Positions 16,250 to 50,360 of a stretch of DNA of 64,000 bases are shown here, piece by piece. This DNA comes from Candidatus Stahliibacteriota bacterium. GTDB taxonomy: Bacteria > Hydrothermota > Tepidihabitantia > B3-TA06. Position numbers and translations under genes: made by a program. The stretch's first letter is position 1, and each line of letters begins with the position of its first letter. The notes under the pieces are model-generated. The model was not told where the DNA came from. It ran no database searches and was given only the letters and a program-made list of their open reading frames with translations. The stretch covers positions 640 to 64,639 of the forward strand of contig SOJW01000068.1 of the NCBI GenBank assembly GCA_004375895.1, given 5' to 3'.

Positions 16250-17835
16250 GATGTCTCACCCCAAGCTCGTATCTGAGCTTTAATAGTATCTCTGGACTTG
16301 ACTGGATCAGAGATGGCGAACACCGGGCATCCGGCGATGCACAAACCACATAACGTGCAGAATCTTGGCGACATACGCGCTTTATGACCGGTATCGGTCC
16401 GCTCTAAGATAGGCGCTCCGTAAGGACATACTGCGGCACAGTAGCCGCATCCGATGCAGACTTCTTCATCGATTTGTGCACCAGGCAGTCGCTTGGGTTT
16501 CGTATCGAATAACGCCTTGATACGGGCGGCCACAACGAACGCGTGGTTTATGGTTTCCTCCATGGGCATAGGCGTGTGCGCACCGCCCACAACGAAGATA
16601 CCAGGATGCACCACGTCCCGGGGTCGTATCCGGTAGCGGCGCTGGGCAAGGTAACCGTTCGTATCCTGTGGAATCCTGAGGGCTTGTGCGAGATTCTCAG
16701 AAAGGTTGCCCACCAGTTTTCCCAGCTTCACGTGCGCACCCTTCCAACCCGTAACACCCGTAACACCCGTACCCCTACGGGGCATTTTCACTATTACTCG
16801 GAGCTTGCACTCAGGTCGCAAGGACATAACACCCGTAACACCCGTAACACCCGTAACACCACCTGGGATACTCCCTCTGATGATTTCGATGTTATGTTTT
16901 TCCGCACCCTCCTTGAACCCTTCGGGAAGAACCACAGATTCAGGCATAAAGAAAACGATTCGCTCCTCCGGCTTTTCGTGCCGCAGCATCACCGCATCCC
17001 AAAAAGCGGTTTCCAGAAGGAACGGATGTACCCCTTCCTTGACCTCGAACGCCAGCGGACCGCGGAACTTACCCCTATCGCGCCACCGGTACTCGAACTC
17101 GAAAAGATTGCCTCCGACCTCACGCACGCCGGTGGCAACAACAATCGCTCCCACCTCCTCTTCGGCATCATTGGAAAGCTTTACTTCGTAGCCGTGCAGC
17201 GATTCTTCAAGGTTTACAAGCTCTGTTTCCTGATAAACCGTTACGTGAAGTTTGTCCTGTAACCCATCGTAAAGTCGATGCAAAAGCTTTTCGGAATCCT
17301 CGCCAGAGGGCCAGACCGTGCGGGTTCTGCGCAGGGTTCCGCCTAAGCGATTGGATTTTTCAATAAGAACAACGTCTATACCTTGCTCAGCTAAAGCACG
17401 CGAACACGCCAGCCCGGCAGGACCGGCACCGATGATTAGTACACGTTCCAAGAGGTCGAGATCCCATTCGGTAAGATGCTCTCTGGTTACGAGCTCTGCC
17501 AACCCCATAGAAAGGAGTCTTTGGGCCTTAAGTGTAGCTTCGGACTTGTTATCATGAACCCAGGCGCAGCGCTCGCGCAGGTTTACGAGCTGGTAGGGAT
17601 TACCTCCGGCCAGGAATTTGAAGATGCTCCCGTGGGTTCTCTCGTCGCACGCGCCGAAGAGGAGGGCTCCTTCGACACCATTGAGATGCTCACGGGCCGC
17701 GCCGTCGCCTAGTTGGGCAAGTGTCTCTACTGATTGGACTTGTGCGAGAGAGTTAAAGTGTTTCTTTAACTTCTCAAGGTCAATCTTTTGGGAGATTTCG
17801 CACCCTTGGCACAAGAAAATTTTAACCTTTTCCAT
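16246..17835 (-). CDS. Divergent HdrA-like flavoprotein (530 aa) carrying an in-frame repeat insertion
   Basis: FLCQGC, GACDERTHG, VNLRERCAWVH, IIGAGPAG, GIFVVGG, CIGCGYCAAVCPY, CTLCGLCIAGCP; lacks QCVGSR..CC motif. Confidence 0.8.
   Translation of the reverse strand: MEKVKIFLCQGCEISQKIDLEKLKKHFNSLAQVQSVETLAQLGDGAAREHLNGVEGALLFGACDERTHGSIFKFLAGGNPYQLVNLRERCAWVHDNKSEATLKAQRLLSMGLAELVTREHLTEWDLDLLERVLIIGAGPAGLACSRALAEQGIDVVLIEKSNRLGGTLRRTRTVWPSGEDSEKLLHRLYDGLQDKLHVTVYQETELVNLEESLHGYEVKLSNDAEEEVGAIVVATGVREVGGNLFEFEYRWRDRGKFRGPLAFEVKEGVHPFLLETAFWDAVMLRHEKPEERIVFFMPESVVLPEGFKEGAEKHNIEIIRGSIPGGVTGVTGVTGVMSLRPECKLRVIVKMPRRGTGVTGVTGWKGAHVKLGKLVGNLSENLAQALRIPQDTNGYLAQRRYRIRPRDVVHPGIFVVGGAHTPMPMEETINHAFVVAARIKALFDTKPKRLPGAQIDEEVCIGCGYCAAVCPYGAPILERTDTGHKARMSPRFCTLCGLCIAGCPVFAISDPVKSRDTIKAQIRAWGETS
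16748..16859 (+). repeat. 112-bp (CCCGTAACA)n-flanked element, copy 1, inside the HdrA-like gene
   Basis: 101/112 identical to 50128-50239 by manual alignment. Confidence 0.9.
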
Positions 17836-17947
17836 CACCTCCCCCTTGACGGGGGAGGACTAAGGTGGGGGTCACCCTCTATTATTATTGTTGAGGTTTG
17901 AGCGAACTTAAAGGGTCGCACTACATGGAGAGGTGTGTTACGGGTCA

Positions 17948-18637
17948 TCACTTCTCCCCCACTTTCGACTCTGATTCCAGATTCATTTCTCCGCAGATCG
18001 AACAGTCGGGAGCCTCGTAATCGTATGGATGTTTATGGACACCAGGCATGGGCTTGGAAACGTCCTTGAGGGTTATCGCCGCCGTAGGACAGATGTAGAC
18101 GCAGGTGCCGCAGCCGATACAGCGTTCGGAAAGCCGCTCGATGGGCGGACCCACGTGGCGCTCGGTGCCGCGATCTATGAACCCGATGGCTGAAGCACCG
18201 ATGATCTCATGGCAGGCACGCACGCAAAGCCCGCAGAGTATGCACTTATCGTTTAAGACCAGGGGATAGCGGGATTTCTCGATACCATATTCACGGGCCA
18301 GTTTCTGGATAAGCGAAGCGTCAGGAGCACGGGCAAGAAGAAGCTCAAGCACCGCCTTGCGGTTGCGGATCACCCGCTCGGTCGAGGTTTTGACCTCGAT
18401 ATCGGGAGCAACTTCATAAATACAAGAAGTTACTAGCTTTGTGCGGCGTCCTGTTGTAACCTCCACAAGACATAACCGGCAGGCAGCGTAAGGTTCAAGC
18501 GCTTCGTGATAACAGAGAGTGGGGATATCAAACCCCTCACGCCGGGCCACCTCGAGGATTGTCTCTCCTTTATAACCAACCACTTCCCTGCCGTCTATGG
18601 TAAATTTGGCCTGACCTTCCCAGTCTGCGTGACTCAC
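17948..18637 (-). CDS. NuoG/HydA N-terminal-like Fe-S protein without catalytic domain
   Basis: IPTLCYH..ACRLCLVEV..LVTSC [2Fe-2S], CILCGLCVRAC, CIGCGTCVYICP; ends after ferredoxin domain. Confidence 0.88.
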   Translation of the reverse strand: MSHADWEGQAKFTIDGREVVGYKGETILEVARREGFDIPTLCYHEALEPYAACRLCLVEVTTGRRTKLVTSCIYEVAPDIEVKTSTERVIRNRKAVLELLLARAPDASLIQKLAREYGIEKSRYPLVLNDKCILCGLCVRACHEIIGASAIGFIDRGTERHVGPPIERLSERCIGCGTCVYICPTAAITLKDVSKPMPGVHKHPYDYEAPDCSICGEMNLESESKVGEK

Positions 18638-18728
18638 AACACTATCTCTCCATCATTACAGATTCCAGCATTATCCAGACGATCTAAAACATATACGGAC
18701 AGTCCAAAAGGTGTGTTACGGGCGTGGT

Positions 18729-20663
18729 TCATTGTGACTTCCCCCCGGAGTGTGTGTTACGGGTGTTACGGGTCACCGCGTCGAATTTACACACGTCAAG
18801 ACAAACGCCGCATTTGATGCAGGCATCCTGATCTATCACGTGGACTTGTTTGCGTTCGCCTGTAATCGCGTCAACCGGGCAGTTGCGGACGCATAAGGTG
18901 CATCCGGTGCAGTTTTCGTTGATCTCGAAGTTGATAAGCGCGGTGCACACCCCGGCAGGGCAGCGCTTATTCTTAATGTGTTCAAGGTACTCGTCGCGGA
19001 AGAAACGCAAGGTGGAAAGCACTGGGTTTGGTGCCGAGCCGCCTAAGGCACACAAAGACGAATCTTGCATCGCCTTACCCAGCTCTTCCAGGAGATCAAG
19101 GTCCGATTCCTGTCCCTCGCCCTCAGTGATACGTTTCAAAATCTCGTGGGTTTGAGATAAACCTTCCCTGCATGGCACGCACTTGCCGCAGCTTTCATCC
19201 TTCAAGAACTCGGTGAAGAACTTGGCCACGTCCACCATGCAGGTCTCGGAGTCCATAACGATCATGCCGCCCGAGCCCATCATCGAGCCTGCCTCCCACA
19301 GCCTGTCGAAGTCTACTTCAAGGTCCAAGAGATTCGCGGGGATACAGCCTCCGGAAGGCCCACCGGTCTGCACCGCCTTGAACTTTTTGCCCTCGGGTAT
19401 CCCGCCGCCGATGTCGTAGATGATTTCCCTGAGTGTAATTCCCATGGGAACTTCCACGAGACCCGCGCGGTTCACCTTGCCCACCAGGGAGAAGATCTTG
19501 GTTCCGGTAGACTCCGGATTGCCGATCGAGGCAAACCACTCCGCGCCCCGCACCGCGATTACTGGAACGTTGGCCCAGGTCTCCACGTTGTTGAGTGTGG
19601 TGGGTTGGTTCCATAAACCTTTTTCGACGGTGTGGACGTACTTGGCGCGGGGTTCGCCCGGCTTGCCCTCGATTGACGCCATAAGTGCCGTGGATTCGCC
19701 GCACACGAACGCACCCCCGCCCTTCACGATTCTGAGATCGAAGTTGAACCCGGTACCGAAGATGTCAGATCCCAAAAGACCGTGCACACGTGCGTCATCT
19801 ATCGCCTTCTCGAGCCGCTTTACTGCCAAGGGGTACTCGGCGCGGACGTATACATAGCCCTGCTGTGAACCTATGGCAAAGGCTCCGATGAGCATCCCTT
19901 CAAGGATGGAATGCGGATCGCCTTCGAGAAGCGAGCGATCCATGTATGCGCCAGGGTCGCCCTCGTCCGCGTTGCAGATAACGTAGCGGTAGCCTTCTGC
20001 GGCCTTGCAGTAGCGCCACTTGCGGCCGGTTCCGAATCCGCCGCCCCCGCGGCCACGCAGACCGGAGGCATCCACCATATCAATAACCTCGTCCGGCTTC
20101 ATCTCGGTAAGGACTCTGTAAAGGCCGCGGTATCCGCCCCGCGCAATATACTCCTCAATGGATTCAGGGTCGATGATCCCGCAGTTGCGCATCGCGATAT
20201 GTTGCTGCTTGGCGGTAAATTCCAGCCCAAACAGATTCTCCACAGCCGCAATTTCGGGCGGAACATTCTCCAGGGGATAGCGGTAGCGGGTGTTACGGGT
20301 GTAATCTTCAATCTCTTCTATCTTTCCTAAGAGCCCCTCTTTGACGACCTTGCCTTCCTTGACTGCAGAAAGAATCTCGGCGACCTGCTCCGGTTTCACG
20401 TGCGAGTAAGTTATCCTGGGCCAGCCCGGTTTGAGGATATCCATAAGCGGCTCCTCATAGCACATTCCGATACAGCCGGTTCGGGCCGACGCGGCTCCGT
20501 TGCCGAACTGTTTTAAGGTCTCTTCGACTGCATGGATGACATCCTTGGCTCCTGATGCGATGCCGCAGGTGGCAGCACCAACCATCACTTTAAGATGCGG
20601 CGGATGTATCCTGCGCTCACCCTCGGACGCTACCTTTTCCAAGTCGGCTAATGATTTTATCAT
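18729..20663 (-). CDS. NuoF/HydB-like FMN/NADH-binding subunit with N-terminal thioredoxin-like [2Fe-2S] and C-terminal ferredoxin
   Basis: GLRGRGGGGF, CNADEGDPGAYMDR, AFVCGESTAL, ESCGKCVPCREG, CALG, CTGCTLC..CP, CIKCGVC. Confidence 0.93.
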   Translation of the reverse strand: MIKSLADLEKVASEGERRIHPPHLKVMVGAATCGIASGAKDVIHAVEETLKQFGNGAASARTGCIGMCYEEPLMDILKPGWPRITYSHVKPEQVAEILSAVKEGKVVKEGLLGKIEEIEDYTRNTRYRYPLENVPPEIAAVENLFGLEFTAKQQHIAMRNCGIIDPESIEEYIARGGYRGLYRVLTEMKPDEVIDMVDASGLRGRGGGGFGTGRKWRYCKAAEGYRYVICNADEGDPGAYMDRSLLEGDPHSILEGMLIGAFAIGSQQGYVYVRAEYPLAVKRLEKAIDDARVHGLLGSDIFGTGFNFDLRIVKGGGAFVCGESTALMASIEGKPGEPRAKYVHTVEKGLWNQPTTLNNVETWANVPVIAVRGAEWFASIGNPESTGTKIFSLVGKVNRAGLVEVPMGITLREIIYDIGGGIPEGKKFKAVQTGGPSGGCIPANLLDLEVDFDRLWEAGSMMGSGGMIVMDSETCMVDVAKFFTEFLKDESCGKCVPCREGLSQTHEILKRITEGEGQESDLDLLEELGKAMQDSSLCALGGSAPNPVLSTLRFFRDEYLEHIKNKRCPAGVCTALINFEINENCTGCTLCVRNCPVDAITGERKQVHVIDQDACIKCGVCLDVCKFDAVTRNTRNTHSGGKSQ

Positions 20664-21208
20664 TTACCAGGCTTCCCGGAGGTTTGGGAGGAGGGCGAGG
20701 GCTCTGGTGGGTGTCTTACGGGTGTTACGGGTGAGGAGGGCCGATACTTCTTGATGATCTCCGGCACCTTATCCTGTCGTACGTGGGCGTGGGTCTCCTC
20801 GTCGATCATCACCGCAGGTGCGATGGAACAGCATCCGACGCATCGCACTCCCTGCAGGGTGAACTGGCCGTCTCGAGTTGTCTCGTCCTGCTCAACACCA
20901 AGATCGCGCTTGAACCGATCCATAATCAGGCTAGCTCCCTTAACGTGACACGCTGTTCCCAGACAGACATTAATTATGTGCTTACCTTTGGGTTTTAATG
21001 AGAACGCGGAATAGAACGTAGCCACATGATAGACCTGAGCTACAGGTATGCGCAATCTGGCCGCGACCTGGCGCATGGCCGCTTCGGGCAGATACCGGTA
21101 GCGCACCTGAAGCTCCTGAAGGGCCGCTATGAGAGACGCCCTCTTTTCTTCAACTTCGTTAAGGATGGTATAAGCGTTTTCGCTCACCAACCCTTTTAGT
21201 TGATCCAT
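20660..21208 (-). CDS. NuoE/HydC-like [2Fe-2S] subunit; start at ATG 21208
   Basis: VATFYSAF, INVCLGTACHVKG, VRCVGCCSIAPAVMID. Confidence 0.92.
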   Translation of the reverse strand: MDQLKGLVSENAYTILNEVEEKRASLIAALQELQVRYRYLPEAAMRQVAARLRIPVAQVYHVATFYSAFSLKPKGKHIINVCLGTACHVKGASLIMDRFKRDLGVEQDETTRDGQFTLQGVRCVGCCSIAPAVMIDEETHAHVRQDKVPEIIKKYRPSSPVTPVRHPPEPSPSSQTSGKPGK

Positions 21209-21216
21209 TGACGCGA

Positions 21217-21244
21217 ATTCTACACGGTTACTGAAGAATGTCAA
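21217..21244 (-). promoter_or_regulatory. Promoter of nuoEFG-hdr cluster, probably leaderless
   Basis: TTGACA-16-TAGAAT-TCGCGTCA-ATG. Confidence 0.7.
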
Positions 21245-21446
21245 GGATCTTCGGGGTAATTTTCTCCTCTTGCCGGGGTCTAGTGCCCCAGCTTGCACTT
21301 GCCGTCTAGTGTCGAGTGAGTGGGACAAAGTGTGAGTGGATCTAAATCCGCGTCACCGAAGGAGAACGACCGCAGGGAGTTCTAATCCGCGTACGCTTTG
21401 CGACGGAAGTAATCTGTGGTTCCTTCAACCTCCTCCCCCGGCGGGG

Positions 21447-22541
21447 CTAAGGGGTTATTGTTTCCCCTTTCCGAATCAACGCGCTTGTTTCTTTCATTTC
21501 CTTCGGAGTGCGTTTGTAGACTTTCGTAACTATACAAATGGCTGGAGGGCCTTCAATATATCTCCCTTCAACCTTCCTTGGTGTCTTAAACTCTTGTTCT
21601 ATTTCAACCATCACTAAATTTGCCCTCTGCGCCCTCTGCGCTACGTATTTTGCGTAATCAATGTTTTCTTTACCAGCGAGTATATATATGTAATCGAAGC
21701 CCTGGCTTATCGCCACTTTAACAGCTCTTATATACGGGCTTGCACCTTCCCTTCTAAACTTCTCTGGTTTAGCAATAAGGAGTATAAATATATTCATTAG
21801 ATTTCCCTGAAATCCCATCTCAATCTCCTCTCCTCGTTCTCTCATGGCCACCCTATATAGAAAGTCAAGAAATCTCTTACATTCTTGGTTCATTTCTTTC
21901 CCAGTAAGTCCTTCCCATTGCCTTATACTCAAATATGAAAATTCTCTAATCATAATTCGCGTAAAGATTCCTACAAAATCCAATTTGATCATTTTTTTTC
22001 TGAGCTCTTTAATGTTATCATAATTCTTAAAGACGGGTATCAATATTTCTCTATAAAACCTTGCCGCTAACTCTGGGTCTACTTTTCTAGCTATAATCAA
22101 CTCTGCCAAAGTATGATCCATAGCTTTTGAGAGTTCCTCCCCTAAGTAAGGTTTAGATTCGGGAATGACACCTTTTTGAGTATAGGCCAAGACGGCCGTT
22201 ACCAAGTTTTCCCACGAATCATGTTGATCTGCCATCTTTATAACAATTTTATTATCATCAAGTAAAACTTTAGCCTTTTCTGGACTTACCAGTTTCAATT
22301 CTACAAGATCCCGACCTATTCCTGCGAGTCCGGAGTCGTATATAAAGTCATTTATGGACATTTTTAGATCCTCTACTATAAATTCAACTCGGCGTTCCGG
22401 TCGGGCTTTGCTCACCTGGCGGAGGAATTTTAGTCTGATTTGACCCCGGAAATGTGGATCTCTTTGCATTCTAATTAAGAAACCAATTACTACCATTGCC
22501 AGCAAGAGTAAAATCGATAACGCGATTGTTATAGCAACCAT
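21447..22541 (-). CDS. AT-rich hypothetical protein with N-terminal membrane anchor
   Basis: Long open ORF, hydrophobic N-terminus, SD AAGGAG; no family recognised. Confidence 0.7.
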   Translation of the reverse strand: MVAITIALSILLLLAMVVIGFLIRMQRDPHFRGQIRLKFLRQVSKARPERRVEFIVEDLKMSINDFIYDSGLAGIGRDLVELKLVSPEKAKVLLDDNKIVIKMADQHDSWENLVTAVLAYTQKGVIPESKPYLGEELSKAMDHTLAELIIARKVDPELAARFYREILIPVFKNYDNIKELRKKMIKLDFVGIFTRIMIREFSYLSIRQWEGLTGKEMNQECKRFLDFLYRVAMRERGEEIEMGFQGNLMNIFILLIAKPEKFRREGASPYIRAVKVAISQGFDYIYILAGKENIDYAKYVAQRAQRANLVMVEIEQEFKTPRKVEGRYIEGPPAICIVTKVYKRTPKEMKETSALIRKGETITP

Positions 22542-22542
22542 A

Positions 22543-22992
22543 TTACTCAACTCCTTCAAAAACCGATCCGTCCATCTTTATTTTCCGGAGGCAATTTAAG
22601 CAAATTACTCTTTGCCCCTCTGATTCTGGAATAGTAAGGAAAGGCCCCACCGGATCAATCTTTTCACCACACAAACTGCAATTCTTTACCCCCACTTTAT
22701 CCAAAAATTCAATAGCCTCCCTAGTAGTAGATAGGACTCCTATTTCTCTAATCTCCGGGGCTTCAAAAAATTCAGCCTGAAGCCCAGCTTTGCTAATGTT
22801 AAACATTTTAAGTCTTTCAGGGAATGCAATTATTAGTAATATAATCCCTCCCATTATAATCACACAAAAAGGAAGAAGCCACCACTGGTGCCAAATAACT
22901 GCACACCCCGCAATAGCCAGTAAAGCTAACATCGCCACATAAGCCAATATTATCTTGACACGCAGCCAAATCCAAACAAGTGCTCTTGTCAT
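22543..22992 (-). CDS. AT-rich two-TM protein with ClpX-type C4 zinc finger; start uncertain
   Basis: Two hydrophobic helices then CSLCG...VICLNC; promoter TTGACA-16-TATAGT at 23015-23042 lies inside the longer ORF-track call. Confidence 0.65.
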   Translation of the reverse strand: MTRALVWIWLRVKIILAYVAMLALLAIAGCAVIWHQWWLLPFCVIIMGGIILLIIAFPERLKMFNISKAGLQAEFFEAPEIREIGVLSTTREAIEFLDKVGVKNCSLCGEKIDPVGPFLTIPESEGQRVICLNCLRKIKMDGSVFEGVE

Positions 22993-23151
22993 CAACAACT
23001 CTTGATATAATTTTACTATACTCCTTTTACGCTTCATGTCAAGAGTTAACCAAATTACGTCGCCAAGCTGACGCTTGGCCTTTTCCCTGGCTGTCTCCCA
23101 TCTGCTGATGTTGACAAGCATTCCAAGCGGTGTAGAATTCAGCGTGTATGC

Positions 23152-23225
23152 GCCCGGCTAGCTCAATCAGGCAGAGCGGCGGATTCTTAATCCGTAGGTT
23201 ATAGGTTCGATTCCTATGCCGGGTA
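23152..23225 (+). tRNA. tRNA-Lys (CTT), CCA not encoded
   Basis: Acceptor GCCCGGC/GCCGGGT, D arm AGCTCAATCAGGCAGAGC, anticodon arm GCGGA-TTCTTAA-TCCGT, T arm GGTTCGATTCC; promoter TTGACA-16-TAGAAT at 23111-23138. Confidence 0.95.
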
Positions 23226-23246
23226 TGGCGACAATCTGCTAATAAA

Positions 23247-23270
23247 TCAGGGGGCCTCAGGCTCCCCTGA
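23247..23270 (+). terminator. Hairpin after the tRNA
   Basis: TCAGGGG..GC-CTCAG-GC..CCCCTGA; no clear U tract. Confidence 0.4.
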
Positions 23271-23281
23271 AAGGAGGCAAC

Positions 23282-23569
23282 GTGGAACAACCGCTGACCC
23301 TTGAAGAAAAGAAACGGGTTCGCTTTGAGGCAACAATAGACATCCTTTACCTCATGAACCTTCTCGGTCTCTACGTGGGATCATTCCTGAGCCCTATCAT
23401 AGGGATTATCTACGCGATTATCCTCAAGTCCGGTTCGCTTTCCGAGCGGGCAAAAAGGGTCGGGCACATCTGTCTGATCCTTGCCCTGATCGGCCTGGGG
23501 ATATGGGTGCTGTTTATCATCATCATCGTCGTTATCGCAGTCGCGGTAGGGGTAGGATACGGCTTCTAG
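23282..23569 (+). CDS. Small membrane protein
   Basis: GTG start after AAGGAGG; 2-3 hydrophobic helices. Confidence 0.7.
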   Translation: MEQPLTLEEKKRVRFEATIDILYLMNLLGLYVGSFLSPIIGIIYAIILKSGSLSERAKRVGHICLILALIGLGIWVLFIIIIVVIAVAVGVGYGF

Positions 23570-23578
23570 GACATAGCA

Positions 23579-28611: not shown

Positions 28612-28625
28612 ATCTGGGGAATCTA

Positions 28626-28654
28626 AAGCGCTCTGCCTAGCAGGGCGCTTCTTT
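28626..28654. terminator. Intrinsic terminator between convergent genes
   Basis: AAGCGCTCTGC-CTA-GCAGGGCGCTT followed by CTTT. Confidence 0.7.
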
Positions 28655-28665
28655 ATTCAAACCTA

Positions 28666-31604: not shown

Positions 31605-31609
31605 TTTAC

Positions 31610-35217: not shown

Positions 35218-35221
35218 CGCA

Positions 35222-38143: not shown

Positions 38144-38144
38144 C

Positions 38145-42636: not shown

Positions 42637-43100
42637 TGACGCCTCCAGGATGGTGAACGGGAGATGAACCGATCGTTTACAGGCGTCTTGGGGAGCTCAT
42701 CAACACTTATATATTTAAGGGCGAAGGAAGAACAACTGGCCACACATCTGGGGCCGCCATCCCGCTCTTGACAGTAGTCACACTTCGTGGCGATGTGTCT
42801 TTCCAGATACTGCTGAATGACCCCGAAAGGACATGCAAAGGTACAGGACTGACAGCCCACGCAAAGGAAGGGACGATGAACAACCACTCCGGTCTCCTCA
42901 TCCTTTACAAGGGCTTCTGTGAGACAGGAAGCTGCACATAAAGGGTCCTCGCAGTGACGACAGGCAGAGGGAAGATTGGCCTGTCCCGCTATATACCCAT
43001 GACGGATACGCGGCTCACCGTGGTGGGACTGCATACAGGCCGCTCTGCAACTCTCGCAACCGCAGCATAGATCAAGATCAAGGACTATTACCTTTTCCAT
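42633..43100 (-). CDS. HycB/CooF/DmsB-like 4x[4Fe-4S] protein
   Basis: CCGCESCRAAC, CRHCEDPLCAASC, CVGCQSCTFACP, KCDYC...RCVASC. Confidence 0.9.
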   Translation of the reverse strand: MEKVIVLDLDLCCGCESCRAACMQSHHGEPRIRHGYIAGQANLPSACRHCEDPLCAASCLTEALVKDEETGVVVHRPFLCVGCQSCTFACPFGVIQQYLERHIATKCDYCQERDGGPRCVASCSSFALKYISVDELPKTPVNDRFISRSPSWRRQ

Positions 43101-44689
43101 ATCCTGCTCCATGAAGGCTTAAGCAGGCCTTCGCCGGTTGCCGAATCCGTGCCCAGCTCAAAGAGCGCAAGCGAGGGTTGATGGTTCGTGCTGACAACCG
43201 CAACGCCAGAAGGTATACCGGGCTGAATCCTCGTGCTTAACCAGGCCTCCCCCTGTTCGGTCTCAATCCCGACCTCTTCCTTATCCTTAACCCCAAGCGA
43301 GGAGGCATCTTCAGGGCTAAGCTTAACCCAGGCCTCTTCGGCAAAGATGGAAAGAAAGCCAATCGCTGACTGGGTTCCTACAAGAAGATAATCCCTGCCC
43401 CTTCTTCGCTTTGCCTTGTAAGACACAAGCGCCTCGGCACGCTCATCGATCGCGGCATCATCCAACGCTTCATGATTCCCAACCAGGGACTCTACCGGCT
43501 TCACCGTGCCACCCAGGCGCCTTATATACTCCCCTGCTGGCAGGCTGCCGGAAAGTGGGGGAAGTTCACCGGTGAGTTCTGCATCACCGAAAAGGGTAAG
43601 GATACTTCCCTGCTTCTCTAGCTCCGCGGTCATCGGCAGAACGAGCTCCAACTCAAAACGTCCGTCCGGGATAAAAAGAGCCCCTGCGGCCACAAACTCG
43701 GCCTTACGAAGAACCGGCTTCAGTTGAGGCTGACCCCAGGGGAAGTAAGCGCCAAAACTCACCACCGCCTTGATGCGTCCTCCCATGAGCATGGGAAGAT
43801 AGGAGTAGAAGGAACTCCTAACCCCGGAAGGCACCCTGCGACCAAGGGGAAGATACCTCATCTGCTCAAGCACGCCGGCGAGCCCAAGAGCGGCTGCGTG
43901 GGTAAGAAAGGGATCAAAGCTGCGGCCACGGGAAGGCGCATTCACAAGAACACCATCCTTGTTGCGAATCATCAAAGCAACAGCCTCAAAGGTCGAGACC
44001 TCAACCCCGCATGCCTCGGTAATAGACTCAAGATCAACCTTATCGCTCGCAATGTGTTTATAAAGACCGTATAAAAACAGCCCCTCGTAACCGGCTTTTA
44101 CCTGCACGAATCTGTGGGCAAAGTGCGAGGTGTTGGTCTCGAACGCATCTACCACTATGTAGCGAAACTTCCGGTTATCACCCTTTGCCTTGCCGAGGTA
44201 GCCAGAGATAACCGAGTCCTGACCAAAGGCGTCCCCCACAATGAAGGCATACTCACCGGTGGTGATCTTCTCTACAGAGGTTGCCGGCGACTTACCGTAA
44301 AGGAACGCCGACTCCGGACCTAACGTTACGTAAGCCAGATTCTCGTAGCCAGCTCCGCGGGTCCATGCCGCGAGCAAAGCAGCCTCCTCACAGGTAAGCG
44401 AGGCGTCGTAGACCACAAGCACCTCGTCAGGCTTGAAGTCAGTAAGCCTTTGACGAAGATACCCTATCGCCTCTGCCAACGAAGCCTGCTCGCCCTTTAT
44501 GATAGGATGATAAAGTCGCTTACGGTGATTGGCTATCTCGGCAGCCGCGTTTCCTTTAGGGCAAAGACTGCCTTCATTACGTGAATCGGAAACATAATCT
44601 ACTCTCCTGATATCCCTTCCCTTAACCTCGAACCCCAACTCGCAGCCCAGGTTGCAGAATGGACATACGGTGCGAGTGGTCTTGCTCAT
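43088..44689 (-). CDS. Molybdopterin-oxidoreductase-fold (NuoG C-terminal/FdhF-like) protein; start ATG 44689
   Basis: VCPFCNLGC...SLCPKG [4Fe-4S], C-terminal dinucleotide-binding-like region (LSPEDASSLGV); no Mo-ligand Cys/Sec motif recognised. Confidence 0.75.
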   Translation of the reverse strand: MSKTTRTVCPFCNLGCELGFEVKGRDIRRVDYVSDSRNEGSLCPKGNAAAEIANHRKRLYHPIIKGEQASLAEAIGYLRQRLTDFKPDEVLVVYDASLTCEEAALLAAWTRGAGYENLAYVTLGPESAFLYGKSPATSVEKITTGEYAFIVGDAFGQDSVISGYLGKAKGDNRKFRYIVVDAFETNTSHFAHRFVQVKAGYEGLFLYGLYKHIASDKVDLESITEACGVEVSTFEAVALMIRNKDGVLVNAPSRGRSFDPFLTHAAALGLAGVLEQMRYLPLGRRVPSGVRSSFYSYLPMLMGGRIKAVVSFGAYFPWGQPQLKPVLRKAEFVAAGALFIPDGRFELELVLPMTAELEKQGSILTLFGDAELTGELPPLSGSLPAGEYIRRLGGTVKPVESLVGNHEALDDAAIDERAEALVSYKAKRRRGRDYLLVGTQSAIGFLSIFAEEAWVKLSPEDASSLGVKDKEEVGIETEQGEAWLSTRIQPGIPSGVAVVSTNHQPSLALFELGTDSATGEGLLKPSWSRIWKR

Positions 44690-45498
44690 ACGAAGGGATC
44701 CTCCAGATGCTTGATTCGATCCCAGGTAATCACAGGACCGTCCTTGCAGCAGAAGAGTTCTCCCAGCCGGCAGTGGCCGCACTTACCGAATCCACACGAC
44801 ATGTTCTTCTCCATCGAGAGGTAGATATCCTCATCTGCAAACCCCAGCTCAAGGAGCCTTTTGGTGGCAAACTTCATCATGACAGGCGGTCCGCAGGCAA
44901 CGGCAAGGCCGTCATTGGGTTTGAAGGGAAGATTGTCCAAAAGCACGGTCACAACGCCCACCTTCTCCTTCCAGTTCTTATCCCCCACGTCAACGCTGCG
45001 GCGTATCTCCACATTCTTGATCTTGCCCCACTCCTTGAACAGACGGTCGTAGACTATATCCCTGGGGGTGCGTGCCCCGTAGTAGAGATGAATCTTCTTG
45101 TATGCGGAGACGTTGTGCAGAAGTGCAAGGAAGAGCGATCGCAGCGGGGCAAGTCCGACGCCGCCGCCCACTATAAGCACGTGACGCCCTTCATAGCGGT
45201 CTGTCTCATAGGGTACGCCATACGGACCGCGGACAGCCAATGTGTCGCCAGGACGAACATCAAAGAGCTTCGAGGTGACGCGACCGACCTTCATTATCGT
45301 AACCTCCATACTCTCCTCCACGTAAGGAGAGGACGAGGGTGTAAATGGTGCCTCTCCAACCCCGGGGGCCGTCAGCTCGATAAACTGACCCGCGTGGAAT
45401 GAGAGCGCCGGCTTTGGCTCCAGCGTAAACGTGCGGATGGTCGGGGTCTCGATTATAACTTCCTTGACCTTAGCCTGGCGGGATTCGTAGGGATTCAT
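44686..45498 (-). CDS. FAD/NAD(P)H-binding subunit, AsrB/HydG/FlxA family
   Basis: GQF, RGPYG, GGGVGLAPLRS, CGPPVMM, MSCGFGKCGHC..CCKDGP. Confidence 0.92.
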   Translation of the reverse strand: MNPYESRQAKVKEVIIETPTIRTFTLEPKPALSFHAGQFIELTAPGVGEAPFTPSSSPYVEESMEVTIMKVGRVTSKLFDVRPGDTLAVRGPYGVPYETDRYEGRHVLIVGGGVGLAPLRSLFLALLHNVSAYKKIHLYYGARTPRDIVYDRLFKEWGKIKNVEIRRSVDVGDKNWKEKVGVVTVLLDNLPFKPNDGLAVACGPPVMMKFATKRLLELGFADEDIYLSMEKNMSCGFGKCGHCRLGELFCCKDGPVITWDRIKHLEDPFV

Positions 45499-46517
45499 AG
45501 CGCCCTCAGGACCTCACGAATGTCTATCTTACCCGTGCACCCGGCGATACAGCGCCCGCAGCCGGTGCACGCGGAAACCTTGAAGTTGCGCGGAAAGGCC
45601 ATAAACTTGCACTCGAAACGGTTACGCAGCCGGTGAGAAAAATGTGCAAGCGGGTTCACGCCACCGCCTACCCTGCCATAGGCGGCGTGGTAGCACCAGT
45701 CAAGCACCTTGACACGCTCAACACCCTTACCGACAGGGATATCATAAAGCAGGAAGCAGTAGCACGTCGAACAGATCCGCTCGCAGGCCTGGCAGTCAAC
45801 ACAGTTGGCCAGGGCCTTGGCCCAGAACGTGGTGTCAAGTTGATGCTCAATCCGATCGGGAAGGTCCGGGGCAAACTCATCGGGGTTGACCTTGGCAAGC
45901 TTGCGCTCGGCGTCGGTACGATGTTTGTCGCGCTTCTTAATCTCTTTTTTATCCACCTCCTTGAGAAGGTCCCCCATCTTCTCAACGATCTCTTCCCCCT
46001 TTGCGGAAAGCACATCCACGATTATCCCCTCCTCGCCAAAGGATAGGTTCAGGTCTCCACCCCAGACAGAGTAAGGTTTGCCGCCGATCCGCAGGCAGAA
46101 GCAGGTATCTGCAGGCTCAGGGCAATCCACGGTAACAACGAGATACTTCTCCCGGCGTTCCTTGTAGAACGGGTCCTCGAGCACGCCCTTAAGGTAGACG
46201 TTATCCTGAATCTCAATAAGCGAGCGGATGTCGCAGTCCTTCGCTCCCACTATCACCTTAGGTTTGATGTCCTTGGAGAAAAGCTGCGGGAAGCTTGCCA
46301 CCCGTTCACGTGAGCCTAAGAAAAATTCCTTCAAAGGCTCTACCGGTCGAACCATCTTGAGGGCTTGGTGAAGTTCCTCTGCTGCAATCTCCTCCTCGCG
46401 CCAGAGCTCGTAGATGGCGTGACGGTCAAACACGCGCGGGTAGTAGGTTTCGCCATATTTTGCCAACTGGGTATAGAACGCAGGAATTGAGGCTAGGGGT
46501 AAAAAAAGAGACCTCAT
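45495..46517 (-). CDS. AsrA/HydB/FlxB-family 4Fe-4S subunit, first gene of the hydrogenase operon
   Basis: GAKDCDI, C.EPADTCFC, CVDCQACERICSTCYCF, CTGCGRCIAGC. Confidence 0.9.
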   Translation of the reverse strand: MRSLFLPLASIPAFYTQLAKYGETYYPRVFDRHAIYELWREEEIAAEELHQALKMVRPVEPLKEFFLGSRERVASFPQLFSKDIKPKVIVGAKDCDIRSLIEIQDNVYLKGVLEDPFYKERREKYLVVTVDCPEPADTCFCLRIGGKPYSVWGGDLNLSFGEEGIIVDVLSAKGEEIVEKMGDLLKEVDKKEIKKRDKHRTDAERKLAKVNPDEFAPDLPDRIEHQLDTTFWAKALANCVDCQACERICSTCYCFLLYDIPVGKGVERVKVLDWCYHAAYGRVGGGVNPLAHFSHRLRNRFECKFMAFPRNFKVSACTGCGRCIAGCTGKIDIREVLRAL

Positions 46518-46525
46518 TGCCGCGA

Positions 46526-46553
46526 ACTATACACAGAAATCAGGGCTTGTCAA
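46526..46553 (-). promoter_or_regulatory. Promoter of hydrogenase operon, probably leaderless
   Basis: TTGACA-16-TATAGT-TCGCGGCA-ATG. Confidence 0.72.
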
Positions 46554-46631
46554 GTTATTTGAACGTTAATTAAACTGGATATCAGGCGCACGGCATCTTG
46601 TGTCTTACGGGTTGCTCTCCCTGTGTCCCCT

Positions 46632-46662
46632 GCGATCTTTTGTGCGCCAGCACAAAAGGAGC
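46632..46662 (+). repeat. Covarying hairpin element, copy 2
   Basis: GCGATCTTTTGTGC-GCCA-GCACAAAAGGAGC. Confidence 0.8.
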
Positions 46663-46666
46663 AATT

Positions 46667-46822
46667 TTGCATTTTGACCGTAGGACGACGCTTGCGGAGC
46701 TATCTTCCAATCTGTAATCTTCTAATCTTCCAATCTTCAATCTGTAATCTGAAATCGCGACGCAGTCGCGCCCCTATTGCCGTTCGCTGTCAGCTGTTCG
46801 CCGTGAGCCGTATGCCGTCAGC
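46667..46822 (+). repeat. Composite repeat block: 33-bp segment shared with 48276-48308, AATCTTC-type units, GCGACGCAGTCGC hairpin, TGAGCYG units
   Basis: TTGCATTTTGACCGTAGGACGACGCTTGCGGAG identical at both sites; hairpin at 46757-46769. Confidence 0.8.
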
Positions 46823-46832
46823 CGAGATTGCG

Positions 46833-47300
46833 TCAAGGAGATATGACGGGGTTAGATTTGGATGGCCAATATCTTTTTCTGGCGCGTATGAAATATATCA
46901 ACCAAGCGATAGGTATCCCGAATGTTAAAACTACGACAATCAAAAGAAACAAAAGTTGTCCCGTCGTTTCCGCTTCAATTTCTCCCCTGAACAACCACCA
47001 TATCCACGATACTGAACGATAAACAAGCGTAAAAGCTAACGTAACAAGCGCAAAAATCCAGCCGATTTTACGTTTAATCAGCATCGTGACAGCTGATGCA
47101 ATCAATATGAGGATATTAAAACATCTCAGCCCAAACGCTTTGAAGACGTCCAACCAGATGACATCAGGGTCACCTTCGATTCCATGAGAAATCTCGACAA
47201 TCGTCCCAACTATAAGTACCCCTCCCACAATAAGACCTCCAACCACCCAGATCCACGCAGGCCAGTGCAGCTTGGACGACGCCGCTTTCTCCTCAACCAT
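46833..47300 (-). CDS. Membrane protein, one copy of an LHWP...W..YF..AR.RY module
   Basis: Four hydrophobic helices; SKLHWPAWIWVVGG ... WLIYFIRARKRY. Confidence 0.75.
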   Translation of the reverse strand: MVEEKAASSKLHWPAWIWVVGGLIVGGVLIVGTIVEISHGIEGDPDVIWLDVFKAFGLRCFNILILIASAVTMLIKRKIGWIFALVTLAFTLVYRSVSWIWWLFRGEIEAETTGQLLFLLIVVVLTFGIPIAWLIYFIRARKRYWPSKSNPVISP

Positions 47301-48111
47301 GACTCACTACCCCGTACCTGCGACGCGCCTTAATGAAGTACACCAGCCAGGCGACGTTGATGACTCCCGCGTATATCAACCACATAATCCCACTGGAGCG
47401 ATGAGGAGTCAGGATACCGTAAACCATGTTAAAAGCAAAGTAGGCAAAAGATATCCCCAGGGTGATGAAAACCAGGAGGTAGCCGATTCTGCGATTGACA
47501 AGCAGCATTACTGAAGACCCGGCACAAGCAAGGACGAAGACAAGCCTCAGTACCTCAAGGGTCATTGCCATGCCCGAATCCAGCGGGTAGATCACCCTGT
47601 CTATGAACAGATATAAAAGGTAAGCCGAAAGCGCAAAATTGCCGACCACCCACACAATGCCTGGCCAGTGCAGAGGCTGTTTTTCAGGAGTGTCCCCTGA
47701 CTTCACAGCGATTCCGTACCTGTGCCGGAAGATAACAAAATAAACTGCCCAAACAAAATTTGAAATAAATGCAATACCCCATAAATATAGAGAGTATGAA
47801 GAAATATCTATCCTGCCACCCAGGAGCACGTAAGCATAGATTGTCGATACAACCAGAGCAATCATCACCAGAACGAAACTCGATTTACGCCTTTTGTACA
47901 AGGCCGTTGCGGCAGCAATATAAAAAATGGCGTAGAGCAAGAAACCTGCTACCGTCGAGGTTTTTAGCCACGGTTGCAGCATGTAAAACGGCTGCTTAAT
48001 AGCCCACACGAACCTAACCACGAGAGCAACAACAATCAAAGGATGCCCTAGCATCCATGCAACAGCTGGCCAGTGCAGAGACGGCTGCTTACTGCTCCTC
48101 TCCTTAGCCAT
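47293..48111 (-). CDS. Membrane protein, two copies of the same module; leaderless start at 48111
   Basis: PSLHWPAVAWMLG..WAVYFVIFRHRYG and QPLHWPGIVWVVG..WLVYFIKARRRYG; promoter TTGACA-16-TATACT at 48117-48144. Confidence 0.78.
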   Translation of the reverse strand: MAKERSSKQPSLHWPAVAWMLGHPLIVVALVVRFVWAIKQPFYMLQPWLKTSTVAGFLLYAIFYIAAATALYKRRKSSFVLVMIALVVSTIYAYVLLGGRIDISSYSLYLWGIAFISNFVWAVYFVIFRHRYGIAVKSGDTPEKQPLHWPGIVWVVGNFALSAYLLYLFIDRVIYPLDSGMAMTLEVLRLVFVLACAGSSVMLLVNRRIGYLLVFITLGISFAYFAFNMVYGILTPHRSSGIMWLIYAGVINVAWLVYFIKARRRYGVVSHG

Positions 48112-48169
48112 AAAGAAGTATACCATAGTTTACCGGCTTGTCAATCCCTCTCCCCCCGCCGCCAGCCCC

Positions 48170-48392
48170 TTCCATTTTGCACTTTGCACTTTGCATTTTG
48201 ACTTTTGCATTGGCGACGCAGTCGCCCCTATTGCTGTCTGCTGTGAGCCGTGAGCTGTGAGCTTCCCCTTCCATTTTGCATTTTGACCGTAGGACGACGC
48301 TTGCGGAGTAAATTTGCATTGGCGACGCAGTCGCCCCTATTGCCGTTCGCTGTCTGCTGTCAGCCGTGAGCCGTGAGCTGTTAGCTGTAAGG
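48170..48392 (+). repeat. Composite repeat block with two GCGACGCAGTCGC hairpins, TTTGCAC/TTTTGCA and TGAGCYG heptamer runs
   Basis: Hairpins at 48213-48225 and 48322-48334. Confidence 0.8.
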
Positions 48393-48410
48393 TGATATGA
48401 CGGGGCTAGG

Positions 48411-48701
48411 TTATCCAACTCCTATAGTATAATGACATTGTTGTTCCTTAGAACCTTCAACCTTGAGTTCTATTGCCCACCCTGGTGGCACGATGTGTGA
48501 AATCGCTTGCGTAGCACCTGCCTTCACACTTCCTATACCCGGGTTTTCCTTACCACGGCGGAGCCGCAAAGTCGCACGTATGTGGCTATCATTCCTTACT
48601 TGTATCGTCACAGTCAATTCCTTGTCCTTGTTTGAATTCTCATAGATAACCCCTTCATACCCACCGGTTTTAGAAACCTCTGGAAAAACACCACACGCCA
48701 T
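48411..48701 (-). CDS. Hypothetical protein, 96 aa
   Basis: SD AAGGAGG; co-directional with neighbours. Confidence 0.65.
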   Translation of the reverse strand: MACGVFPEVSKTGGYEGVIYENSNKDKELTVTIQVRNDSHIRATLRLRRGKENPGIGSVKAGATQAISHIVPPGWAIELKVEGSKEQQCHYTIGVG

Positions 48702-48712
48702 TTTTTGCCTCC

Positions 48713-49027
48713 TTACTTTTTCTTTTTGGGAACAGAACGACGAGACCTGCCGTCCTTCGTTCTTACCGTTCCGCCAACGTCTGCGTTCTTCATTGTCTGC
48801 ACTGCTTGGGGTATGTCTTTCTTCTTGACTATCATAACCTTTTGGGGCTTGCGACTCTTTTTCAGTCTTTGTGCTGCACCGTTAAAATCCCCACTATATT
48901 CAACTTCTACAGCTTTTTTCTTAGTTGTTGCGTCAAGACGTTCTCCACCTTTTAAAGGAACCTCCGTTTTCCCCTTCTTTCCTACAGCTTGTTTCTTTGC
49001 CCTTTTGTGGGCTTCACTTTCTGGCAT
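48713..49027 (-). CDS. Small basic protein with minimal PD-(D/E)XK-like motif
   Basis: ESEAHKRAK ... E.PL...RLDA ... AVEVE pattern; SD CAGGAG. Confidence 0.6.
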   Translation of the reverse strand: MPESEAHKRAKKQAVGKKGKTEVPLKGGERLDATTKKKAVEVEYSGDFNGAAQRLKKSRKPQKVMIVKKKDIPQAVQTMKNADVGGTVRTKDGRSRRSVPKKKK

Positions 49028-49041
49028 TTTTTACTCCTGTT

Positions 49042-49767
49042 TTAACTCGTATGTGGAGCCATTAATTTAAAGACCCTTTCAAACCTCTCGCAATCTTTAC
49101 AGTCAGGGTGTCCTTCAGGTGGTTCTATCATATTAACGATTGTTCGGACTTTTTTCAGTATTTCAGGTACTAACTCATCAGGTCTAAGTTGAACACTAAA
49201 CGGCGTTGCTTTAAAGTTCATCCAGAATTCTTCCTGCCCCATGTATTCTTCTACATTGGGTTGTTTAATATCGGTGATTGGCTCAGTGTAGATTAAGGTT
49301 ATAGCAGATACAGGACTAAATCCTATTCGGTTGGCTATATATGCATATATATTCAGCTGAGCATCATACATAGGAAATAATTGATCCTGCTTTGAGGTTG
49401 CCTTAGCAGTCTTATAATCTACGATGTGGTAAGAACCGTCTTCCATTTGGAACATATCATCAGGTGTACCTGAGACAACAATTGAATAGGCTTGGTCTCT
49501 ATACCTAAAAGAGCTGTGATGTAATTTAGCCACGTAAGCCTTTACTTGTCCTATGTCAGGAAACCACGGTGGTAAACTCTGATGATTCTCAAAGTAATAA
49601 TGAACAACCTTTTTCCCGTAGGCGTCTATCGAGTTAAATATTCCAGGGAATGGGCTTTCAAAAGGAAGTTTTCTATCGCAGTGCAATTTTAACCAGTAAC
49701 ATCTAGGGCAGAAATCCGGCAACATTACCTCCCCCAACGCCCGAGATGGAATGACGATATCATTCAT
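49042..49767 (-). CDS. PD-(D/E)XK nuclease, Cas4/AddB-like with four Cys
   Basis: FCPRCYW, GTPDD, IVDYKT, QLNIY, DCKDC. Confidence 0.82.
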   Translation of the reverse strand: MNDIVIPSRALGEVMLPDFCPRCYWLKLHCDRKLPFESPFPGIFNSIDAYGKKVVHYYFENHQSLPPWFPDIGQVKAYVAKLHHSSFRYRDQAYSIVVSGTPDDMFQMEDGSYHIVDYKTAKATSKQDQLFPMYDAQLNIYAYIANRIGFSPVSAITLIYTEPITDIKQPNVEEYMGQEEFWMNFKATPFSVQLRPDELVPEILKKVRTIVNMIEPPEGHPDCKDCERFERVFKLMAPHTS

Positions 49768-50021
49768 TCTTCCTCCTACTTCTTTTCTAACTATACGCCT
49801 TTTTACGCCTCATGTCAAGCCCTAAAATGAACTTCTGTCACCAAGCTGACGCTTGGCTCTTTTCCTTGACTCTCCCCCATCCTTTTACCCCAGACATTCG
49901 CCGTGAGCTATTAGCTGTCAGCCGTAAGCCGCTCCATTTTGCAATTTGATATTTGACTTTTGCATTGGCGACGCAGTCGCACCCTTGACTCTCTCCCCTA
50001 TCTGGTTACAATGACGACTAC

Positions 50022-50360
50022 ATGTTTGAAACGGTGCTTATAATACTCATCGCGGGCGCGGTTGCGATTCTTGCGGCAATGCGTTTTATCGCCGCCGTAA
50101 GAAAGCTGGCCAGCCGCGAGCCCGACACCCGTAACACCCGTAACACCCGTACCCCTTCGGGGCATTCTCATAATTACTCGGAGCTTGCGCTCCGCTCACA
50201 AGGAAATAACACCCGTAACACCCATAACGCCCGTAACACGCATGCGTCCTCCAGACGCTACGACACCCGGCGCCAGGACAAGCCGCCGCTGGTGTTCTGG
50301 GCCGTAGCCTCACCCCTGCTTGCCGCCGCCTGCGTCACCGTTATCCTGCTGATGCTTTAA
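50022..50360 (+). CDS. Two-TM small protein whose loop is largely the 112-bp repeat element
   Basis: Promoter TTGACT-16-TACAAT at 49985-50012; hydrophobic N- and C-termini; TRNTRN loop. Confidence 0.55.
   Translation: MFETVLIILIAGAVAILAAMRFIAAVRKLASREPDTRNTRNTRTPSGHSHNYSELALRSQGNNTRNTHNARNTHASSRRYDTRRQDKPPLVFWAVASPLLAAACVTVILLML
50128..50239 (+). repeat. 112-bp (CCCGTAACA)n-flanked element, copy 2
   Basis: Matches 16748-16859; internal hairpins CCCC-TTC-GGGG and GAGC-TTGC-GCTC. Confidence 0.9.

Follow-up and report, generated by a model that had tools for sequence, protein, structure and literature searches.

How does one and the same 112-bp sequence come to lie in frame within two unrelated genes, read in opposite orientations? 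The question is raised by a 64-kb stretch of DNA (hereafter the window), contig C57 of a metagenome-assembled genome (MAG; G000) of a candidate division WOR-3 bacterium, which spans 2.2 Mb in 75 contigs, is 89.9% complete and has a coding fraction of 88%. Positions 16748–16859 and 50128–50239 of the window are identical at 101 of 112 positions, the similarity ends abruptly at both element ends, and both copies consist of two nonamers of the sequence CCCGTAACA, a 66-nt core and three further nonamers, (CCCGTAACA)2-core-(CCCGTAACA)3. Here, we argue from comparison with related genomes that both stretches stem from a non-autonomous mobile module specific to this lineage, a reading to which we assign a probability of roughly 80%.

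The two copies and the family they belong to

Copy 1 lies within an open reading frame (ORF) on the – strand (16246–17838) that codes for an HdrA-like flavoprotein of 530 aa, HdrA′, in which an FAD-binding Rossmann domain is combined with a 2×[4Fe-4S] region at the C terminus; the gene is located in an Hdr/MvhD/NuoF-type operon. Its 5′ tract of two CCCGTAACA units (16748–16765, + strand; GVTGVT when read on the – strand) is followed by a core of subfamily A2 (16766–16831, +; – strand reading VMSLRPECKLRVIVKMPRRGT) and by a 3′ tract of three units (16832–16858, +). Copy 2 is situated in the loop that joins the two transmembrane (TM) segments of a 112-aa membrane protein, encoded on the + strand (50022–50360). 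It has a 5′ tract of two units (50128–50145, +; reading TRNTRN), a core of subfamily A1 (50146–50211, +; + strand reading TRTPSGHSHNYSELALRSQGNN) and a 3′ tract CCCGTAACA CCCATAACG CCCGTAACA (50212–50238, +), of which the middle unit CCCATAACG is degenerate. Both hairpins of the copy 2 core, CCCC-TTC-GGGG and GGAGC-TTGC-GCTCC, are intact. The copy 1 core runs from CCCGTA through the CCCCTACGGGG hairpin and GGAGC-TTGC-ACTCA to GGACATAACA, its second hairpin being disrupted by two substitutions (GCACTCA in place of GCGCTCC), and in the reverse frame it has CGA where copy 2 has TGA. The match, the two-core-three layout, the opposite in-frame readings, the state of the hairpins and the TGA/CGA difference had been described in the original prediction, and each is reproduced.

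That only these two copies exist had been named as a condition that would speak against the original prediction. The genome instead holds 32 core matches at 27 loci (nhmmer, E<0.01) and 310 exact CCCGTAACA units in 259 tracts of 1–5 units, where by our own estimate about 17 units would be expected by chance. In the window, the 18-mer CCCGTAACACCCGTAACA occurs 11 times with up to two mismatches, compared with 0 occurrences in 100 shuffles. The cores come as variants of 66–69 nt (A1, A2 and A3), 60 nt (B) and 54 nt (a short S form), together with a C module, and they are mosaic, with A, B and C modules in varying order; in the sister species G001, one core is an A1/A2 hybrid. At six loci in G000 two or three cores are joined head to tail, not inverted. 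More than half of the nonamer tracts fall within ORFs, in the five stop-free frames, and about two thirds of the G000 core loci are intergenic or at gene ends. Among 132 genomes of the class, the element is present in nine, all from family f1 (nine of its 11 genomes, in three of its four genera), and it was not found in the 121 class genomes outside this family. Rfam gave no match for the window at gathering thresholds or for the region around the copy 2 ORF (50000–50380) at permissive thresholds, and a search of the searchable literature returned neither the CCCGTAACA motif nor the element.

Empty and filled sites in host genes

Orthologous sites were compared mainly with G001 and with two further relatives, G004 and G002; identities of hdrA′ give the species tree ((G000,G001),(G004,G002)). 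At the hdrA′ spot, G009 carries no repeat, G006 nonamer-like units only, and G002 two clean nonamers (CCAA-CCCGTAACA-CCCGTAACA-CCACC). The spot is filled in G001 (one nonamer, 66 nt, one nonamer), in G000 (two, core, three) and in G004 (three, core, two). Set against the empty site of G002, the G001 site is thus longer by exactly 66 nt (22 codons), and the nonamers are not duplicated (two versus one plus one). The ortholog alignment that had been proposed for defining boundaries and target duplication therefore also revises the size of the mobile unit: it is the 66-nt core that moves, not the 112-mer, and it lands in the nonamers around it, a tract that is older and varies independently. Wider sampling in a collection of 5.8 billion proteins (from which the P-numbered proteins below are taken) shows that both sub-clades of the genus hold core-plus (P0001, P0002, P0004, P0005) and core-minus orthologs (P0003, P0006, G002). 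The in-frame insert is present in at least six species or assemblies, and seven more distant orthologs are without any repeat; those listed as repeat-free are G009, P0007–P0011, P0014 and P0015.

The same series speaks to the reverse direction, in which the core would be native hdrA sequence, related to its KLRVIV-like strand, that was captured and spread, or in which both copies would be an assembly artefact. In a MAFFT alignment the HdrA′ insert does come to stand opposite GKLEVSAFDALSG, which in distant HdrA homologs is a native segment. However, orthologs from the same family are repeat-free at the spot or hold nonamers only, the module also sits at 27 loci that are mostly non-coding, and the same 66-mer recurs elsewhere, so the capture that the original prediction had left as an option is excluded. 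An artefact is likewise ruled out, since the same in-frame insert is common to independent assemblies from four sources (NCBI, ENA, JGI and Logan). We consider this pair of explanations barely credible.

In HdrA′ the insert reads as ...GGVTGVTGVTGVMSLRPECKLRVIVKMPRRGTGVTGVTGW... at residues about 327–364, and a protein that reads through it is predicted to yield the junction peptides ...IPGGVTGVTGVTGVMSLRPECK and LRVIVK.... Solved HdrA structures do not cover the insertion region. In an AlphaFold model built on a 17-sequence alignment, which is moderate in quality (mean pLDDT 62, pTM 0.52), residues 325–378 have pLDDT values of 22–47 and lie between predicted strands 318–321 and 368–372, so that the insert models as an unstructured loop. 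The G000 copy has two private substitutions that disrupt hairpin 2, one changing R to C and one silent, and by its sequence appears consistent with a copy that is beginning to decay. In G000 the HdrA-like and MvhD-like genes overlap by 4 nt (16246–16249); in G002 (contig C149) and P0010 the HdrA-like ORF continues into the MvhD-like gene, giving 747 and 761 aa, by gene fusion or a lost stop. Around residue 118, P0001 carries a further nonamer tract, oppositely oriented (...TTRNTHRNTQKH...), where G000 reads only ...VTREH..., and a single gene can thus hold landing pads in both orientations.

The host of copy 2 had been described as a two-TM ORF with the element in its loop, and the invariance of its TM flanks bears this out: as judged by conservation, the 112-aa ORF is a real gene and belongs to a conserved WOR-3 protein family, with a loop that is hypervariable in repeat content. 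The locus is kept in G001 (in two places), G004 and G002, and conservation extends from a putative promoter (TTGACT-N16-TACAAT; 49985–50012, +), which ends 9 nt before the ATG, to the TAA stop. Family members in the protein collection are 72–147 aa long and share the flanks MRFIAAVRKL... and QDKPPLVFW.VASP; one member is only 50% identical, with conservative substitutions. Copy 2 encodes TRNTRNTRTPSGHSHNYSELALRSQGNNTRNTHNARNT in frame, and reading through it predicts the junction peptide ...EPDTRNTRNTRTPSGHSHNYSELALR.... Across the family the loop contains between zero and three cores, always in the RNT frame and always open. It ranges from about one nonamer (P0040, 78 aa) through nonamers only (P0037, P0039, P0043) to forms with one A core, one B core, B+A, B+B (G002) and B+B+A (P0029, 147 aa). 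The spacer between this small ORF and an aldehyde dehydrogenase gene (50405–50626) is itself filled with tandem arrays (TCCAATCT ×13, GCCGTGAGCTGTCA ×3 and TTTGTCCAGCT ×5), and the stretch at about 50571–50630 is recurrent on many contigs of all members of the genus.

Further host genes have a similar arrangement, and Pfam domains are found on both sides of the inserts. A GT4 glycosyltransferase of G000 has an in-frame core in the linker between its two Rossmann domains; G002 has a core at this site too, while G001 and G004 have nonamers only (two and seven units), G003 a single degenerate unit, and other genera nothing. TatD of G000 has two in-frame cores after its GYHPHE motif. A single CCCGTAACA-CACC marks the site in G001, G002, G006 and G010, and G000 alone has that unit plus 66 and 54 nt. 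In a PG_binding_1 protein the in-frame core again lies in a linker, where G001 and G004 have three nonamers and G000 alone has one nonamer, 66 nt and two nonamers. A histidine kinase (C5:62184–64022) has a C-terminal tail made from one in-frame core; at the corresponding site in G001 (C22:85906–86423) there are about 158 nt between the flanks, room for two cores. In a ferredoxin-like gene (C67:50801–51418, –) the in-frame element stands immediately before the CxxCxxCxxxCP motif. Relatives have 0, 1, 2 or 4 nonamers in the CYG frame ahead of CAGCGLCxDVCP, whereas the CAG unit is missing from G000, where a nonamer encodes the motif's first Cys. Read as TGT-TAC-GGG (CYG), the nonamer imitates CxxC spacing. 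The element is also found at the ends of three further ORFs of G000. That the inserts are read through as peptide seems probable, given that the host ORFs are intact and conserved.

How recent is this mobility? In the order G000, G001, G004 and G002, a core is present, present, present and absent in hdrA′; present, absent, absent and present in the GT4 gene; and present in G000 only in the TatD and PG-binding genes. Taken from these sequence comparisons, the distribution contradicts the species tree. We joined the flanks of 25 core loci of G000, searched the three relatives with them and counted only sites verified by alignment, which settled C52:38407 as filled in G001 and C51:47874 as filled in G004 and G002. 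Of 13 sites checked in this way against the sister species G001, nine are empty and four are filled. The PG-binding, TatD and C6:23619 sites are empty in all three relatives and thus represent gains on the G000 lineage, and the junctions at C51:31412, C33:24909 and C6:23619 are of the same empty/filled kind as those in hdrA′, the PG-binding gene and TatD. Sequence identity of the inserts points the same way: between G001 and G004 the hdrA′ gene is 79.3% identical (58% at third codon positions), while the insert region is identical at 90 of 90 positions, for which our own calculation gives P of about 1e-9 if the insert had evolved like the gene. This identity indicates that cores were recently copied or homogenised at the DNA level; the 66-mer in question is also the one found in the PG-binding gene of G000. 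With at least seven host genes, empty and filled orthologous sites and a distribution at odds with the species tree, the earlier reading of a miniature mobile element that enters genes in the manner of Rickettsia palindromic elements (RPEs) is strengthened.

Elsewhere in the window the nonamer also occurs on its own. Two units on the – strand (18755–18772) code for part of the C-terminal tail ...TRNTRNT... of a NuoF-like gene (18729–20663, –); the 644-aa protein ends in ...DAVTRNTRNTHSGGKSQ, with the nonamer-coded part directly after the last 4Fe-4S motif. Two more units, with one mismatch, lie directly upstream of this gene (20714–20731, –). At 61284–61355 (–) the nonamer is combined with a 6-nt spacer in a 15-mer array (GGGTGTTACGGGAGG × 4.8), and similar spaced forms of 12 and 15 nt occur at C3:20691, C48:61640 and C21:25450. 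A tandem repeat with a period of 120 bp at 58865–59410 (4.6 copies, 73% matches) is probably a coding repeat.

Module ends, hairpins and a possible mechanism

The ends of the core resemble the nonamer itself. The core starts with CCCGTA and ends with TAACA, direct half-nonamers, and as a consequence a filled tract looks like a nonamer tract in which one unit has been split by 57 nt. No terminal inverted repeats (TIRs) of 7 nt or more are present within 50120–50245. Nor is there target duplication at the three clean sites, where intact nonamers are unchanged (two versus one plus one in hdrA′, three versus one plus two in the PG-binding gene, one versus one in TatD). A single nonamer suffices as target, as in TatD, where only the 4 nt CACC lie on the right. 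The left flank ends in TAACA at all three of these sites and is TAACA-CA at C51:31412. Each module also ends in TAACA, so the next can join directly, which gives the head-to-tail tandems without spacer. Neither a model with a fixed 9-bp target-site duplication (TSD) nor one with a single fixed cleavage point within the nonamer fits all junctions. There are 6 nt between the left end and hairpin 1 (CCCC-TTC-GGGG), and 18 nt between hairpin 2 (GGAGC-TTRC-GCTCC) and the right end. Over 22 copies, pairing is kept at 91% of the hairpin positions and two pairs show compensatory changes; values as high as these were obtained in 7–14 of 500 shuffles, and pairing in slid controls was 28–60%.

These features suggest how the module may move. 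The moving unit is the 66-nt (22-codon) module, in variants of 54–69 nt with a short hairpin near each end, and it inserts at or beside existing CCCGTAACA units, single or tandem, which are scattered about 260 times in the genome. A single-strand HUH/Y1 "peel-and-paste" reaction of the type used by the insertion sequence (IS) families IS200/IS605 and by REP-associated tyrosine transposases (RAYTs; REP, repetitive extragenic palindrome), acting in trans, may carry it; what leads us to this proposal are the subterminal hairpins with compensatory changes, the lack of TIRs and TSDs, the fixed TAACA found in the left flank and again at the right end, and the tandem stacking. Elements of the IS200/IS605 group have subterminal hairpins that are recognised, are cleaved at a short left-flank sequence and at the right end, and lack TIRs and TSDs (PMC3201880, PMC5027513). 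The WOR-3 module shares these structural traits, and Y1 HUH genes are present in the genome. As with IS608, insertion is directly 3′ of a short fixed sequence (TTAC in IS608, TAACA here), and the right end of the module carries a copy resembling the cleavage site. Unlike these elements, however, it has no TnpA with matching ends that could be found, guide pairing is not demonstrable and the strand bias is weak. We further note that G008, the one member of family f1 without a Y1_Tnp match, has no match to the element either. To our knowledge, no IS200/IS605 derivative is nearly as short.

We consider such an HUH/Y1 reaction and homology-templated copying between tracts about equally likely as the route of spread. 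A stronger form of the second would dispense with dedicated transposition altogether: cores would spread and vanish only by gene conversion, template switching and unequal recombination between nonamer tracts, and the element would be a passenger of a dispersed minisatellite whose nonamers supply the homology on each side. Much in the data suits it. Nonamers flank nearly every core on both sides and vary freely in number, cores are gained or lost exactly at unit boundaries, cores are mosaic and an A1/A2 hybrid occurs in G001, concerted evolution would account for the identity of 90 of 90 positions across species, and no cognate enzyme was found. Three sites fit it poorly, as the TatD insertion used one lone nonamer, to the right of which the 4 nt ...CACC are the only possible homology, and homology is similarly minimal on one side at C33:24909 and C51:31412. 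Lengths of 9–18 nt are below those usual for efficient RecA recombination. In addition, a passive passenger would not need the hairpin pairing that compensatory changes have kept. On balance we see copying by homology alone as a serious possibility, though one with clearly less than even odds.

Several observations weigh against the mobile module as we describe it. The thermodynamic support for the hairpins is weak and only marginally better than that of shuffles (z = –0.8 to –2.2). Since the module ends mimic the nonamer, the point of insertion has an ambiguity of up to 11 nt. Several of the presence/absence patterns can be read as precise losses instead of gains, and at some filled sites the number of nonamers differs as well (at C5:58932, five units in G001 versus three units plus a core in G000), so that insertion and tract slippage are not always separable. 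Two composite variants, of 104 and 107 nt, are not multiples of three. The orientation bias of cores is weak, with 19 co-oriented and eight anti-oriented to neighbouring genes, and orientation has no relation to local GC skew (15:12; the contigs are fragments, on which replication direction is not assignable). The search for a mobilising enzyme near other copies, as had been suggested, tied no Y1/RAYT-like gene to the element. G000 has four RAYT-like genes with a Y1 domain (PF01797), at C32:5854–6336, C59:12252–12770, C5:12028–12522 and C5:94396–94950, and each is bracketed by its own, different hairpins, for instance GGGCCGACCT..AGGTCGGCCC with a GTAG head at C32; judged by these sequences, the hairpins are separate REP families in the same genome. 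No core lies beside any of six Y1 loci in the relatives, and the G000 assembly, at its 89.9% completeness, holds no longer autonomous element with the same left and right ends.

Could the element instead be kept for a function of the nucleotide sequence in the host, as a transcript-stabilising or terminator-like hairpin or as a protein-binding site, with the genic copies being incidental? The location of about two thirds of the core loci between genes or at gene ends, the compensatory changes in the hairpins and the 19:8 orientation with neighbouring genes would agree with this, and selection would explain the extreme conservation of a 66-mer that is identical across species. But the sites are not conserved in position, with nine of the 13 verified sites differing between sister species, the hairpins of copies 1 and 2 are not followed by a T-run, no Rfam family matches, and the stability of the fold is near that of shuffled sequence. 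We therefore regard such a function as unlikely to be what maintains the element.

Reading frames, tolerance and related repeat families

Is the module adapted to being translated? The cores of all six subfamilies have lengths that are multiples of three (3n), and this also holds for 20 of 22 distances between left and right ends. Stop-free frames, in contrast, are no more numerous in the cores than in shuffled sequence of the same composition (P = 0.34–0.96), and we reject the idea that the module evolved to be translatable, except for its 3n length. This length is the feature that exceeds chance, and it may reflect selection on the element for survival in a genome that is 88% coding. Which variant is found in which host depends on the frame: A2, which has CGA in the place of the TGA of A1, is alone among the variants in being open in the GVT frame, and it is the one found in hdrA′, the PG-binding gene and C3:39225, whereas sites in the CYG frame hold A1-like variants and sites in the RNT frame (the small ORF, GT4, TatD and the kinase tail) hold any variant. 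The CGA of copy 1 is shared by A2 copies at other loci and in other species, and is hence a trait of the subfamily and not a repair after insertion, a possibility that we reject. A genic insertion is thus retained if its variant of the module is, by chance, without a stop in the frame of the host, and it then reads as a loop, linker or tail peptide.

The original prediction went further and saw the inserts as domesticated peptides, which in its strict form would mean that selection retains them for an added function in HdrA′ and in the two-TM protein. The hdrA′ insert is in frame across at least six species or assemblies, the loop of the two-TM protein is always open, and in the ferredoxin-like gene a nonamer-encoded Cys takes the first position of CxxCxxCxxxCP. 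Nevertheless, close relatives are core-free at the same site with an intact gene, both for hdrA′ (G002, P0003, P0006) and for the small ORF (P0037, P0039, P0040), and unrelated modules (A, B, BB, BA and BBA) fill the same two-TM loop. The HdrA′ insert is predicted with low confidence, as a disordered loop, open frames are at chance level, and 100% nucleotide identity indicates processes at the DNA level and not selection on the peptide. Domestication in this sense seems very improbable to us. The inserted peptides are shown by these comparisons to be tolerated passengers that come and go between sister species. What stands of the original prediction is its observation and its reading of a mobile, RPE-like element; peptide domestication, the 112-mer as unit and capture from hdrA do not.

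RPEs were reportedly introduced by Ogata and colleagues in 2000. They are in-frame, hairpin-forming, non-autonomous elements whose mechanism of mobilisation is not known (PMC10969869). The WOR-3 element resembles them in being a short hairpin repeat with many copies per genome and no coding capacity, and in that many copies lie in frame in unrelated genes; as in RPEs, whose hosts are housekeeping genes, they would be translated into additional peptide where the protein tolerates it. As far as can be told from the sequences, the hosts here are the genes for HdrA′, the two-TM protein, TatD, the GT4 enzyme, the PG-binding and ferredoxin-like proteins and the histidine kinase, in its tail. It differs from them in lineage and has an unrelated sequence, its core is 66 nt long compared with about 100–150 bp, and it uses a dispersed in-frame 9-nt repeat as a landing site, stacks in tandem, is built of mosaic modules and has a documented turnover between sister species. 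It is not a member of the RPE family, being confined to one family-level clade and having no Rfam match, a distinction drawn on these grounds and not on a comparison with an RPE consensus.

Other short repeats share some of these traits as well. With REPs, REPINs and BIMEs the module has in common short GC-rich hairpins, tens of copies, a clade-specific, mosaic and fast-changing nature, and the presence of RAYT-like genes (PMC3116915, PMC3184786, PMC2229807). REPs are extragenic and typically form inverted doublets around or near their RAYT (PMC3116915), whereas the WOR-3 copies are direct tandems, many of them intragenic, and the RAYT-like genes are flanked by other hairpins, which sets the element apart from this group. 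MITEs (miniature transposable elements with inverted repeats) that fuse in frame, such as intragenic ERIC, BOX and Nezha, are likewise small and non-autonomous, with open frames that fuse with host ORFs (PMC10969869, PMC2229807), but the WOR-3 element has neither TIRs nor TSDs, and there is no parent IS with the same ends in the G000 assembly. The nonamer has its own counterpart. In heterocystous cyanobacteria, the short tandemly repeated repetitive (STRR) heptamers are a short unit that occurs in tandem and is dispersed to hundreds of sites within one lineage. The nonamer is similar in this respect, but at 9 nt it is frame-neutral, it is frequent in genes and it acts as the landing site for a second element. 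The WOR-3 element is, in conclusion, a recently mobile, lineage-specific intragenic repeat, RPE-like and with an unusually clear target rule.

Possibly the nonamer and the 66-nt module go together more closely, as a two-tier system adapted to coding sequence as a habitat. The frame-neutral 9-nt unit would seed landing pads in genes, and the mostly 3n hairpin module, which ends in a new landing site, would colonise them; one activity, for example nicking and joining by a Y1/HUH enzyme at TAACA, could make both the tracts and the module insertions. We offer this as a speculative extension that we think unlikely. If true, it would mean a fast and reversible variation of loop length, a contingency-like diversification that has not been described in bacteria. 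Examples would be the two-TM protein (zero to three modules), envelope enzymes in their linkers and an Fe-S motif in one Cys ligand.

For in-frame "selfish" repeats in bacterial genes we know of essentially one textbook case, that of the Rickettsia RPEs, and the WOR-3 family adds a second, independent one. It is also a tractable one: the unit is exactly 66 nt long, the landing site is defined and 9 nt long, sister species offer many orthologous pairs of empty and filled sites, and the genome is small and has candidate HUH enzymes. In practical terms, the repeats matter for annotation, as in WOR-3 MAGs they interrupt assemblies and falsify gene calls and protein lengths. For the organisms themselves, turnover of the repeats makes loops and linkers of core metabolic proteins longer or shorter and, in one case, has placed repeat codons in a metal-binding motif.

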